The position numbers and the translations under genes were made by a program. This document shows, piece after piece, positions 1,386 to 51,749 of a stretch of 64,000 nt of DNA; positions within the stretch are counted from its first letter, which is position 1; every line of letters starts with the position of its first letter. Under the pieces are notes generated by a model. The model was not told the DNA's origin, ran no database searches, and saw nothing but the letters and a program-made list of their open reading frames with translations. The DNA comes from Methanobacteriota archaeon. Lineage in GTDB: Archaea > Thermoplasmatota > Thermoplasmata > SG8-5 > JAGLSY01. Where the stretch lies: assembly GCA_020696385.1 (NCBI GenBank), contig JAEHCQ010000003.1, positions 1-64,000 of the forward strand, read 5' to 3'.

Positions 1386-1548
1386 TGGAACTGGTATTTT
1401 AAGGTTTTGAAGTAATAGCCCCGAGTGAGCATGCTTGGGCGATTTTTCTTTTGGATTGGAAACCTTGTTCTTTTGGAGCCCAAGCCAGCGGAGCGAGAGG
1501 AAAAGAAAAGGCTTCCTGGAACTGGTATTTTAAGGTTTTGAAGTAATA
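1386..1548. mobile_element. 99-bp structured non-coding element (1418-1516) flanked by perfect 32-bp direct repeats
   Basis: TGGAACTGGTATTTTAAGGTTTTGAAGTAATA at 1386-1417 and 1517-1548; internal stems GCTTGGGC/GCCCAAGC and GGAAACCTTGTTCTTTT/AAAAGAAAAGGCTTCC; homologue at 26019-26117. Confidence 0.7.
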
Positions 1549-20035: not shown

Positions 20036-21601
20036 ATGACATATCTTAAATTCACAGATTTCGGGCTGATAAAACCGATAGAACGCGCATTAGGCGATAT
20101 CAATTACGTTGATCCAACACCGATACAGCAACAGTCCATACCCTCATTGCTCAAAGGCCGTGACATTCTAGGTTGCGCTCAGACAGGAACTGGAAAGACC
20201 GCAGCTTTCTCATTGCCGATCATCCAACACCTGGCCAAGAACAGACGAAAGCGCGAGACCGGAATTGTTCGCGCTCTCATAGTGACCCCCACAAGGGAAT
20301 TGGCCGACCAGATATACCAGAACATGAGAATGTACGCAAGATATCTTGATGTCAATTCTGTGGTCGTATTTGGCGGAGTGAAACAGAACCCCCAGGTCAA
20401 GAGCCTGAACAGAGGTGTGGATATTCTGGTCGCAACCCCAGGCAGACTTCTGGATCTGATCCAGCAGGGCTATATCAAGCTGGAGAAAGTGGAGATATTT
20501 GTGCTGGATGAAGCAGACAGGATGCTGGATATGGGATTCATACACGACATCAGGCGAATTTTGGGATACCTGCCAGATAAGAGACAGACGATGTTCTTTT
20601 CGGCCACCATGCCTCCAAAGATAGTCAAGCTGTCAAAGTCAATGATCCATGATCCGATCAGGGTGGATGTCACACCAGAAAAGCCAGTCCTCGAATTCAT
20701 AGACCAGCAATTGTTTATGGCAGAGATGAACCAGAAGACAACGGTTCTGATGAATATTCTCAAAGAGGATGATGTCAAGAAGGCACTCGTCTTCACGCGC
20801 ACGAAACATGGAGCCAATAAGATGGTCAGGCTACTGGGGCGCGCGGGCATAGATGCAGAGGGCATACATGGTAATAAATCACAGGCAGCCAGGCAGAGTG
20901 CGCTGGCTGATTTCAAGAATGGTTCCGTAAAGGTGCTGGTCGCTACAGACATCGCAGCTCGTGGAATAGATGTAGAAGGAATAAGCCACGTTATCAATCA
21001 CGATATACCGGATGTTGCGGAAACCTATGTCCACCGTATTGGGAGAACCGCACGTGCAGGCTCCAGCGGGATATCCATATCACTTTGCAGTAAAGAAGAA
21101 CAGGGGTCATGGAGAGATATTGAGAAGCTTATCAAACAGCCGATCCCAGTATCTGATGTGAAACCTTATCTGGGCAATGTCAAGTTGATGCCAGAAGTAA
21201 AAAAGCAACAGCCAAAGCCAAGACAGAGGGTGCAGAAGCAGCATGGCCGAAGACCCGATAATAGACAAGGCGGAAAACCAGGTAATAAACAGGGTGGAAA
21301 GCCAGGCAACCGCCAGGGATATAAGCCTGGCGGGCAACAGAGTCATAAACCGGGTGACCAACAAGACGGAAAACCAGGTAATAAGCAGGATGGAAAGCCA
21401 GGCAACCGCCAGGGATATAAGCCTGGCGGGCAACAGAGTCATAAACCGGGCAATAAACAAGGCGGGAAGCCCGGTGGCTATAAGGGAGGCGGAGGTGGCG
21501 GAAGAAAGCCCAATCCACACAGAGATAGCCGTCGCCAGCAGCAGAAGCAGCCCAAGAAGAGCAACAATGACAGGCAAGGAAATAATATGATCATGCGATG
21601 A
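20036..21601 (+). CDS. DEAD-box RNA helicase (RhlE-like) with repetitive Gly/Lys/Gln tail
   Basis: Q motif, AQTGTGKT, PTRELA, DEAD, SAT, HRIGRTAR. Confidence 0.95.
   Translation: MTYLKFTDFGLIKPIERALGDINYVDPTPIQQQSIPSLLKGRDILGCAQTGTGKTAAFSLPIIQHLAKNRRKRETGIVRALIVTPTRELADQIYQNMRMYARYLDVNSVVVFGGVKQNPQVKSLNRGVDILVATPGRLLDLIQQGYIKLEKVEIFVLDEADRMLDMGFIHDIRRILGYLPDKRQTMFFSATMPPKIVKLSKSMIHDPIRVDVTPEKPVLEFIDQQLFMAEMNQKTTVLMNILKEDDVKKALVFTRTKHGANKMVRLLGRAGIDAEGIHGNKSQAARQSALADFKNGSVKVLVATDIAARGIDVEGISHVINHDIPDVAETYVHRIGRTARAGSSGISISLCSKEEQGSWRDIEKLIKQPIPVSDVKPYLGNVKLMPEVKKQQPKPRQRVQKQHGRRPDNRQGGKPGNKQGGKPGNRQGYKPGGQQSHKPGDQQDGKPGNKQDGKPGNRQGYKPGGQQSHKPGNKQGGKPGGYKGGGGGGRKPNPHRDSRRQQQKQPKKSNNDRQGNNMIMR
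21266..21475 (+). repeat. In-frame tandem repeat, 24-nt unit with 96-nt higher-order duplication
   Basis: CAAG(G/A)CGGAAAACCAGGTAATAA... at 21266 and 21362; encodes (QxxKPGxx)n. Confidence 0.9.
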
Positions 21602-25541: not shown

Positions 25542-25611
25542 ATGTCCAAAAGCAATTATACCTCTGAAAACATTCCCCTACCTAAGGGAAATTCTTAAAT
25601 ATATAAAAAAG

Positions 25612-25684
25612 TGGGCCCGCCCAGATTCGAACTGGAGTCTAGCGCCCCCGAAGCGCCAAGTATGCCAAGCTAACCCACGGGCCC
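25612..25684 (-). tRNA. tRNA-Pro (CGG)
   Basis: GGGCCCG acceptor stem, anticodon arm GGCGC-TTCGGGG-GCGCT, T-loop TTCGAAT; no intron, CCA not encoded. Confidence 0.95.
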
Positions 25685-25797
25685 TTATCAGCAGGGTAAA
25701 ATGAAGTCCAGTATAAAGATTATCTTCAAGGGAAATCTCAATTTTCGAGAAGGCTGAATCTCAGCAAAGCTGAGCTTTCGCAATCTCGGCAAACCGA

Positions 25798-25987
25798 GCT
25801 TGGGCGAGTTTTTTTAAATGCGACTTCATCAATTGATCCCACGCATTTATTTTATCAAACGTATGCAATGGGTTTGATTCGACTTGTTACCCTTCTTCTT
25901 CTTTTTTTTAAGATGTGCATTCCGGGAATGCATGCATCTTTTTTATCAAACACATGCATATGAATTTGATTCAGGAGCCAGTGCCAG
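25798..25987. mobile_element. Degenerate copy of the pseudoknot element, interrupted by two related ~65-bp twin-hairpin inserts (25816-25882, 25910-25973)
   Basis: Removing the inserts restores GCTTGGGCGAG-T-tract-CTTGTTACCCTTCTTCTTC-T-tract-GGAGCC; inserts share TTTTATCAAAC..ATGCA..TTTGATTC. Confidence 0.6.
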
Positions 25988-26018
25988 TCATTTTAACAGA
26001 TAAATATAAAACAAATTG

Positions 26019-26117
26019 CGAGTGAGCATGGTCGCCCGAGTTTTTCTTGTTACCCTTCTTCTTCTTTTTGGAGGGCGACCCAGCACAACGAGCACTAAAA
26101 AGAAGAAATTGGAAGCT
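26019..26117. mobile_element. Second intact ~100-bp pseudoknot element
   Basis: CGAGTGAGCATG, stem GGTCGCCC/GGGCGACC, stem TTCTTCTTTTT/AAAAAGAAGAA; same layout as 1418-1516. Confidence 0.7.
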
Positions 26118-26136
26118 CTAACCCACGGGCCCTTAT
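26118..26136 (-). repeat. 19-bp duplication of the tRNA-Pro 5' end
   Basis: CTAACCCACGGGCCCTTAT identical at 25670-25688 and 26118-26136. Confidence 0.85.
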
Positions 26137-26244
26137 TTGCGTCCCTGGTATTGTTAGGGGGTTGATATATATTTTGATGTGGGCTATATTGATGTTTCAG
26201 TATGGTGGTGGTAATTCTCTCTGCATTGGGGGGGTGGTGGAGCG

Positions 26245-48744: not shown

Positions 48745-48766
48745 AACTGTTAAGCGTCTAGTATAT

Positions 48767-51744
<2,978 letters not shown>

Positions 51745-51749
51745 GACTA

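Follow-up and report, generated by a model that had tools for sequence, protein, structure and literature searches.

A dispersed non-coding cassette family in Thermoplasmata with a covarying fold, a triple-helix signature and duplicated gene ends

The DNA analyzed here is a window of 64,000 nt, the whole stretch under study, which is contig C33 of the archaeal genome G000 (2.28 Mb, assembled in 50 contigs). A search of the whole window against Rfam at the gathering threshold matched the archaeal LSU rRNA alone (48762-51749). The two elements on which we focus, hereafter copy A and copy B, are members of a family of non-coding cassettes of about 100 nt and had no match in this search. Both were located where the original prediction had placed them on one shared scaffold: the motif CGAGTGAGCATG occurs exactly at 1422-1433 and 26019-26030, two matches where 0.26 were expected. 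The first of them, copy A, lies between two identical copies of a target sequence, with the following features.

1386-1417, forward strand: X, the 32-nt target sequence, first copy of the direct repeat, identical to 1517-1548.
1419-1516, forward strand: copy A, a full-length cassette of the subfamily with the AAAAGAAAAGG tract (nhmmer E = 1.9e-23; 101.4 bits with our covariance model R1).
1421-1426, forward strand: 5' strand of the closing helix P0, CCGAGT, pairing with 1493-1498 (GCGAGA), tandem G.A included (covariation and RNAalifold).
1433-1440, forward strand: 5' arm of helix S1 (stem A), GCTTGGGC, pairing with GCCCAAGC at 1478-1485.
1443-1452, forward strand: U tract 1, TTTTTCTTTT, the proposed Hoogsteen strand, with a parallel match to the purine tract.
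1458-1474, forward strand: apical loop and U tract 2, GGAAACCTTGTTCTTTT, 5' strand of helix S2, in a duplex with 1501-1516.
1501-1516, forward strand: 3' purine tract and tail, AAAAGAAAAGGCTTCC, 3' strand of S2 and precise right end of the cassette, X' starting at 1517.
1517-1548, forward strand: X', the second 32-nt target copy, followed by a degenerate head-like relic (ACAGAGCGACCA...).

Neither junction of copy A shows microhomology. At the same site in G002, a genome of the same genus, the 32-nt X is present once and the cassette is absent; the degenerate head relic is found in both genomes. The second element, copy B, belongs to an array next to a tRNA gene.

25611-25684, reverse strand: tRNA-Pro(CGG), identified by ARAGORN, whose 5' end contributes to the direct repeat on either side of the copy-B array.
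25667-25688, forward strand: X of this array, AAGCTAACCCACGGGCCCTTAT, antisense with respect to the 5' end of tRNA-Pro, recurring at 26113-26136 with a 2-nt insertion.
25746-25987, forward strand: older composite cassette of the copy-B subfamily, with a head, an additional hairpin module and, at 25816-25882 and 25907-25973, nested double-hairpin modules.
26017-26112, forward strand: copy B, a cassette of the subfamily with the AAAAAGAAGAAA tract (nhmmer E = 2.9e-14; R1 98.1 bits).
26030-26037, forward strand: S1 5' arm, GGTCGCCC, pairing with GGGCGACC at 26073-26080.
26041-26051, forward strand: U tract 1, TTTTTCTTGTT, whose match to AAAAAGAAGAA scores 8.5 in parallel and 6.5 in antiparallel direction.
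26056-26069, forward strand: U tract 2, TTCTTCTTCTTTTT, Watson-Crick partner of the purine tract (duplex of -19.4 kcal/mol).
26097-26112, forward strand: purine tract and tail, AAAAAGAAGAAATTGG, identified by the duplex and parallel-match tests.
26113-26136, forward strand: X' of the array, a displaced copy of the tRNA-Pro 5' end, as read in the sequence.

The older cassette is truncated after CCAG, its S1 arms no longer pair, and its bases 25883-25906 match the copy-B loop exactly. Together, copy B and this decayed cassette form an array bracketed by a repeat of 22-24 nt that includes the tRNA-Pro 5' end. The original prediction had drawn copy B from 26019 to 26117. Its location was correct, but its end was not, since the fold ends at 26112 and is followed by the duplicated tRNA end. 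The prediction had also described a change of stem A between the two copies, at five positions and with pairing intact. The pairing is indeed intact, both copies having perfect 8-bp reverse complements, but the altered positions are four (2, 4, 6, and 7 of the 5' arm).

The fold comprises three helices with covariation support: the closing helix P0, S1 (stem A), and the pseudoknot helix S2. From 5' to 3', the cassette is made of the P0 5' strand, CGAGCAGG, the S1 5' arm, CGAG, U tract 1, the apical loop, U tract 2, GGAG, the S1 3' arm, CCAGCRCAG, the P0 3' strand, 2-3 nt, and the purine tract with its tail. The usual pairs of P0 are C-G, C-G, G.A, A.G, G-C, and C-G (CCGAGC with GCGAGG), and the conserved junction places GAGCAGG opposite CCAGCRCAG. 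S1 is hypervariable, and is capped by a C-G pair plus a tandem G.A, above which lies a U-rich terminal loop.

The comparative evidence for P0 and S1 comes from 23 clean copies, in which 81% of the cells are paired, versus 61% in shuffles, and 12 of the 15 pairs have changes on both sides. Their covariation score of 0.549 compares with 0.183 in shuffles and was reached by none of 500 of them; slid controls scored between 0.03 and 0.12. In P0 (columns 11-16/85-90), five of six pairs changed on both sides. RNAalifold, run with no structure as input, predicted these helices again along with two pairs in the junction; 10 of 12 pairs were compensatory. These results agree with the earlier claim that structure rather than sequence is conserved, and the further genomic copies do covary. 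The pair tables contain 17 G.U cells versus 4 A.C cells, which indicates that the sense strand is the folding strand. Single-sequence folding energies equal those of shuffles (z of 0.36 and -0.85), hence the evidence for the fold is comparative, not thermodynamic. We conclude that the family and its nested fold are very likely real. The idea of a functional folded family is thus supported, yet it was incomplete: around stem A, which forms just the central helix, the fold adds a closing helix, a pseudoknot, and a probable triplex, and the mobile or recombining nature of the cassette, its flanking copies of the end of the upstream gene, and the spread over several families of the class (see below) had been missed.

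The helices vary in ways that can be followed among copies. In 'short' variants, 6-7 Watson-Crick pairs without a fixed sequence take the place of P0 altogether (GAATTTT with AAAATTC is one case), and in one S1 variant that recurs (GTGAGGGC with GCCCGAGC), a third tandem G.A lies inside the stem. A K-turn, the motif bound by L7Ae, may be considered: the tandem G.A is conserved in P0 and at the top of S1, and by inspection alone one may place a 3-nt bulge between S2 and S1. Orthologous cassettes at a tRNA locus (C44:62072-62166) are nearly identical, with about one difference per 100 nt or so by our reading of the alignment. One orthologue pair has compensatory double changes in S1 and an unchanged 35-nt loop (ATCACCC/GGGTGAT versus CTTACCC/GGGTAAG). 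The copy at C11:492666 is chimeric, with arms of two S1 types, and its G002 orthologue pairs. Finally, nested modules are variably present between orthologues. They lie in the loop beside the U tracts or between head and S1, positions that leave the strands of the putative triplex intact.

The third helix, S2, would be formed by U tract 2 and part of the apical loop, which are complementary to the purine tract and tail at the 3' end of the same cassette. Its two sides change together between subfamilies (GGAA/TTCC, GTAA/TTAC, GTGA/TCAC, CACCA/TGGTG, and GGCAAC/GTTGCC). We parsed 51 of 55 copies, the four with long inserts being dropped, and computed duplex energies for the 49 distinct sequences among them. 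The loop binds its own tail with -17.3 kcal/mol, as opposed to -12.6 for swapped and -10.2 for shuffled tails. The relatedness of the copies means that permutation counts overstate their independence, and the comparison was also made with one representative of each of the 24 purine-tract types: the duplexes with the own tail average -18.05 versus -13.43 +/- 0.64, a value that none of 5000 permutations reached. For copy B, only 2% of foreign tails bind U tract 2 equally strongly. These comparisons make it likely that the pseudoknot forms. As only 2-3 nt join P0 to the purine tract, geometric reasoning suggests that P0 packs beside S1, or else that P0 and S2 alternate.

In each of the 51 copies parsed, S1 closes the loop that holds both U tracts. 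While U tract 2 is antiparallel to the purine tract, U tract 1 is its mirror partner: it runs in the same direction, with U facing A and C facing G. Among the 49 sequences, the match of U tract 1 is better in parallel than in antiparallel direction in 28, equal in 21 (those with mirror-symmetric tracts), and worse in none. The preference of U tract 2 is the opposite, with 34 better in antiparallel direction, 13 equal, and 2 worse. Counted per tract type, U tract 1 is better in parallel in 17 of 24, equal in 7, and never worse, whereas shuffled U tracts 1 give a symmetric outcome (358, 1135, and 357). No tail swap, over 500 permutations, reached the observed parallel score. Asymmetric tracts hold the register, as in AAAAGAAAGAGTGG with TTTTCTTTGTCACC and AAAAGAAAGGG with TTTTCTTTCCC. 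U tract 1 of copy A is mirror-symmetric, and this copy alone therefore cannot separate the two directions. Mirror repeats are not the product of any ordinary DNA process known to us. In U.A-U / C+.G-C triplexes, the pyrimidine third strand as a rule runs parallel to the purine strand, and we regard the parallel match as the sequence signature of such a triple helix. Judging from these pairing patterns, U tract 1, U tract 2, and the purine tract probably form a triplex physically. The same code is equally valid in DNA, as T.A-T / C+.G-C.

The cassettes are dispersed in the genome, where an iterated nhmmer search gave 45 matches, about 23 of them clean full-length units. Fifteen matches exceed 100 nt, and 13 of these are full or near-full units with nested insertions; the remaining matches are partial. 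The covariance model R1, built from the 23 clean copies of G000, matches 29 of 61 related genomes, with 1-38 matches per genome. These include the four other genomes of the same family (4/4) and 16 of 17 other genomes of the order (2/2, 2/2, and 12/13 in three other families). Four further families of the class also have matches, and 13 other sampled families have none. The cassette family is old and lineage-wide.

In agreement with the original prediction, which had recognized no named family, the search of six cassette copies against Rfam up to E = 10 returned chance-level rows of microRNAs, leaders, and ctRNAs, all far under the gathering scores. A scan of a genome collection with a loose degenerate pattern listed matches that are nearly all bacterial and that we take as chance; one Thermoplasmata MAG among the matches listed has a weak R1 match (30.7 bits). 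In viral contigs, none of 80 tested loci with the loose pattern and none of three with a tighter pattern match R1, and no viral carrier was found with these patterns. At the level of listings and abstracts, the full-text literature gave no description of the cassette family or of an archaeal element resembling the ENE (see below).

Cassettes are found in sense orientation just 3' of stop codons and of tRNA genes. We searched from -30 to +120 nt upstream of each of the 45 copies for the end of an ORF of at least 100 aa: 17 copies have one in sense (co-oriented) only, 4 in antisense only, 6 in both, and 18 in neither. The distance from the end of the sense ORF to the cassette is mostly between -1 and 14 nt, and several of the copies in the last class adjoin tRNA genes in sense orientation. 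There is no TATA-like signal at a fixed distance across 83 upstream regions, which argues that the cassette is not an independent RNA gene.

Direct repeats flank 24 of the 45 copies of G000 at a score of at least 13, versus none of 45 mismatched controls, and 11 of 30 copies in relatives versus one of 30 controls. Their length is 16-91 nt in G000 and reaches 117 nt in a relative. X corresponds to the sequence that immediately precedes the cassette, usually the end of the gene before it, and at least 25 different flanking sequences were found, which are ends of protein and tRNA genes. No motif marks the start of X across the 29 repeats listed; it begins at GTTC in the tRNA cases (the T-loop region) and in two protein-gene cases (L096 and L030). 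The right end is exact, X' starting 0-1 nt past the tail in at least 12 copies, and on the left side 2-60 nt of unique 'filler' can part X from the cassette. Often, X' runs on into the start of a cassette (its first 5-13 nt) or into a degenerate 5' portion of one, and there are deletion derivatives that skip the hairpin.

The comparison of sister genomes reveals orthologous sites with and without a cassette, including four G002 cassettes at sites that are empty in G000. Behind one tRNA gene there are two cassettes in G000, both followed by a copy of the tRNA 3' end, and only the distal one in G002, which indicates that the newer unit is the one next to the gene. At a locus common to both genomes, X and X' are identical within each genome and differ at about eight sites between genomes. 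Beyond the identical core, duplicates differ almost only synonymously, by our reading of the translations: 12 of 13 differences at C3:2428, and 4 of 4 or 5 of 5 at C2:13703. Such differences speak for the joining of two gene alleles and against local slippage. At C22:311394, the gene end in the displaced copy is of G002 type, and the copy in use resembles the allele of a third genome, G003. Together, these observations suggest that units made of a gene end and a cassette may pass between related genomes and be added through recombination, homologous or one-sided.

Several known routes of mobility fit poorly. Transduction of 5' sequence was rejected, as seven unique filler stretches have no second match in G000 or in the examined loci. 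Target-primed retroposition was discarded because the reverse transcriptase domain PF00078 was not found in G000 (94.5% complete) or in the three other genomes of the genus; it occurs in 13 of the 61 genomes, of which only five are among the 29 with cassettes. Nor do the cassettes resemble MITEs: copy A has ends (GCCCCGAG... and ...AAGGCTTCC) that form no inverted repeat, and the duplications are long and variable. A site-specific integrative element of tRNA genes would be expected to have one att core, versus the at least 25 different repeats found here. Clustering of the ORFs within the G000 assembly (at least 50% identity over at least 60% of the length) gave one family of five members and none larger, and the cassette-rich contig C2 carries ordinary chromosomal genes (an aIF5B-like GTPase, FTHFS, transporters) and no mobility enzyme. 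G000 has an IS200-type Y1 transposase gene in single copy (C50:1965-2396). Among the 61 genomes, 20 have both Y1 and cassettes, 9 cassettes alone, 9 Y1 alone, and 23 neither. Of 16 Y1 loci examined, 4 share a 176-aa neighbour and one, that of G000, has an R1 match within about 3 kb of the gene. These data link the Y1 transposase to the cassettes only loosely.

One of the closest likenesses is to the ENE and its A-rich tract (KSHV PAN, MALAT1, MEN-beta). In MALAT1 the 5'-to-3' order is U tract 1, apical part, U tract 2, and A-rich tract, and the order of the tracts in the cassette is the same. Going by the cassette's letters, tract 2 is likewise the Watson-Crick strand and tract 1 is compatible with a parallel Hoogsteen strand, and the C residues of both U tracts face a G of the purine tract, as in C+.G-C. 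The cassette also lies, like the ENE, at the 3' end of transcription units. It differs in its archaeal host and its tens of copies per genome, in a genome-encoded purine tract whose pairing runs on into the apical loop as a longer pseudoknot helix, in the tandem G.A pairs of its lower stem, and in its extra closing helix. Double ENEs in transposon RNAs of plants and fungi are borne by mobile elements, as the cassette is (PMC13541005); in the excerpts of this 2026 review, archaea are mentioned for riboswitches and H/ACA complexes, not for ENE-like elements.

The REP, BIME, and REPIN sequences of bacteria are also short, extragenic, imperfect palindromes with many copies behind genes and compensatory changes in their stems. 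The cassette shares with them possible roles as an mRNA 3' barrier or terminator, and the pairing of REP with RAYT, a Y1 enzyme, recalls the single-copy IS200-type Y1 gene of most cassette-bearing genomes. However, REP elements carry a GTAG-type tetranucleotide that the cassette lacks, the cassette fold is far more elaborate (pseudoknot and triplex signature), long target-derived direct repeats (16-117 nt) flank it, and cassettes do not flank the Y1 gene. The att-flanked, cis-mobilisable elements at tRNA genes offer another parallel, since each tRNA-linked cassette is closed by a repeat of the tRNA 3' end and new units are added beside the tRNA. Yet the cassettes are gene-free, about 100 nt long, and targeted to dozens of ends of protein and tRNA genes, and one site-specific integrase cannot explain this range of targets and of repeat lengths. 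Finally, H-type pseudoknots with major-groove triples (telomerase RNA, the SAM-II and preQ1-II riboswitches) have a U-rich loop strand alongside a U:A helix made with a downstream strand. The topology of the cassette is alike and supported by covariation, but the cassette is not 5' regulatory, has no ligand context, has much longer helices (an S2 of about 16 bp), and is repeated and mobile.

The best single reading of these data, which in our estimate falls somewhat short of an even chance, is that a recombining DNA cassette carries a cap for RNA 3' ends that resembles the ENE. Transcripts of the upstream gene, either read-through or processed, would include the folded cassette, whose triple helix would bury the RNA 3' end and block 3'-to-5' decay. 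The cassette would then be an archaeal analogue of both ENE-type stability elements and REP-type 3' barriers. As DNA, it would travel with a copy of the last 16-117 nt of a gene; such units of gene end and cassette would be swapped between related genomes and inserted beside the gene by homologous, Campbell-type, or one-sided recombination. This route would explain the arrays, the repeats that are identical within a genome, and the empty sites in sister genomes. Some observations count against an RNA cap: 18 of the 45 copies have no long ORF end nearby and 4 are antisense only, and behind one tRNA the older cassette lies beyond a T-run. The missing TATA-like signal, the short link between P0 and the purine tract, the validity of the pairing code in single-stranded DNA, and the shuffle-like folding energies weigh on the same side.

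One may suppose instead that the fold acts as single-stranded DNA, in the manner of REP/REPIN, of IS200/IS605 ends, or of integron attC sites, as a substrate for recombination or transposition by a candidate HUH enzyme, the Y1 transposase conserved in the order, any effect on RNA being incidental. We consider this possible, if on the unlikely side. The cassette clearly is mobile or recombining DNA with a precise right end, copies have exchanged S1 arms (as in the chimera described above), and the pairing code also holds in DNA. By our reading, the junctions GAGCAGG / CCAGCAC are conserved imperfect inverted repeats with fixed A.A mismatches. Y1, with its single copy and its partly conserved neighbour, is present in 20 of 29 cassette-bearing versus 9 of 32 cassette-free genomes. 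However, this co-occurrence largely tracks one clade, three genomes at least 90% complete (G029, G032, and G041) have cassettes without a Y1 match, and proximity to the Y1 gene is limited to the one locus in 16. Moreover, the 'peel and paste' mechanism of Y1 leaves no target duplication, whereas the repeats here are long and variable, and the orientation of the cassette follows the upstream gene, which also speaks against a DNA substrate.

The placement directly after stop codons and tRNA genes, in sense, would suit a portable transcription terminator or insulator, in which the U tracts stop RNA polymerase and the helices and purine tract modulate this, for example by pairing with the U tracts. 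Each cassette has two T-rich tracts, and the nested double-hairpin modules end in T runs. The U tracts, of T4-T8, resemble archaeal termination signals, such that transcripts could end before the purine tract, a point that bears against the RNA cap. A terminator, however, needs neither a purine tract complementary to U tract 2, nor a U tract 1 that mirrors this purine tract, nor a closing helix, and all three covary; nor does a plain oligo-T signal need C residues matched by G in the purine tract. We judge it improbable that termination is the main role. Least probable, in our view, is selfish DNA whose mirror repeat forms H-DNA or a hairpin and stalls replication, leading to tandem duplication and template switching, with the repeats as a by-product and a fold that serves neither host nor RNA. 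Such a process would fit duplications that are long and variable (up to 117 nt), second units that restart the cassette and stop after 5-13 nt of head, derivatives that skip the hairpin, and repeats that are identical within a genome and different between genomes. But H-DNA in a duplex has no use for a purine tract in cis, the junctions of copy A lack microhomology, the nearly synonymous-only differences of the flanks point to joined alleles, and several families of the class have conserved both the cassettes and their junction motifs.

New findings of this analysis are the architecture of three helices and a probable triplex, its distribution within the order, and the duplication of gene ends next to protein genes. 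In viruses, vertebrate long non-coding RNAs, and eukaryotic transposons, RNA 3' ends are known to be protected by triple helices. That the cassette is the first ENE-like element of prokaryotes is a proposal that we put forward as doubtful but worth stating. In this view, a genome-encoded RNA triplex (U.A-U/C+.G-C) would cap archaeal mRNAs and read-through transcripts of tRNA genes at their 3' ends, and the mobile cassette bearing it would install itself behind genes along with a spare copy of the gene end. If true, protection of RNA 3' ends of the type seen in eukaryotes and viruses would be present in Thermoplasmata and would move there between genes. An archaeal counterpart would extend this protection to a new domain and provide a compact natural model of about 100 nt, whose dozens of natural variants would amount to a compensatory-mutation experiment for all three strands. 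The covariation model is now available to annotate the family, which accounts for several puzzling duplicated tRNA ends in G000 and related genomes. With their long duplications of gene ends, the cassettes also reveal a way, not described before, in which non-coding modules are added behind genes, and this bears on the evolution of archaeal 3' UTRs, of tRNA loci, and perhaps of unusual tRNA introns.

Cassettes contain nested modules of about 65 nt, each with two hairpins and T runs. Two of these double-hairpin modules lie in the window, inside a cassette, and many other cassette copies of the same genome (G000) also carry them. The modules sit in the cassette loop beside a U tract, mostly immediately after one, and they are variably present or absent when orthologues from G000 and from the same-genus genome G002 are compared. 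A second type of module, also with two hairpins (CTGAATCTCAGCAAAGCTGAGCTTTC...TCTCGGCAAACCGAG), has its insertion point precisely at the junction of the cassette head with the 5' arm of the S1 stem.

Nested modules and their positions
Window 25816-25882: double-hairpin module, inside cassette
Window 25907-25973: double-hairpin module, inside cassette
Window 25754-25798: second module type
G000 C33:72915, C33:199934, C47:27461 and C48:101112: second module type

Two deletion derivatives were found on contig C11 of G000 (C11:568218 and C11:52333). In both, the purine-tract tail directly follows the cassette head, as though the hairpin had been passed over.

Other repeats were also observed, some of them close to cassettes. 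In both genomes, cassettes are adjoined by a further repeated element with GGGGCGGGG-type hairpins (e.g. TACCCCGCCCC...), as in these G002 loci:
L078 (G002:C22): GGGGCGGGG-type hairpin element beside cassette
L088 (G002:C11): GGGGCGGGG-type hairpin element beside cassette
At C2:9680-9860, G000 has an CTACATGCCCCAGAGTAA-like unit of about 18 nt repeated in tandem, and the same site in G002 holds a cassette with a single unit of this kind at its flank. The imperfect tandem repeats at window 21238-21453 (period of 24/72/96 nt), within a purine-rich stretch, are probably a repetitive coding region.

Cassettes also occur next to tRNA genes. One on contig C50 of G000 lies between a pair of tRNA-Phe(GAA) genes, each with a called length of 87-88 nt:
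G000 C50:1231-1318: tRNA-Phe(GAA)
G000 C50:1710-1796: tRNA-Phe(GAA)
The sole IS200-type Y1 transposase gene of G000 (C50:1965-2396) is located just upstream. At the tRNA-Pro(CGG) locus (window 25611-25684 and 26113-26170), the sequence that lay upstream of the gene has been displaced by the cassette array, and cassette-side sequence now precedes the intact gene. The duplicate of the tRNA 5' end (26113-26136) adjoins an AT-rich, TATA-like stretch around 26157-26175, which is apparently the former promoter.
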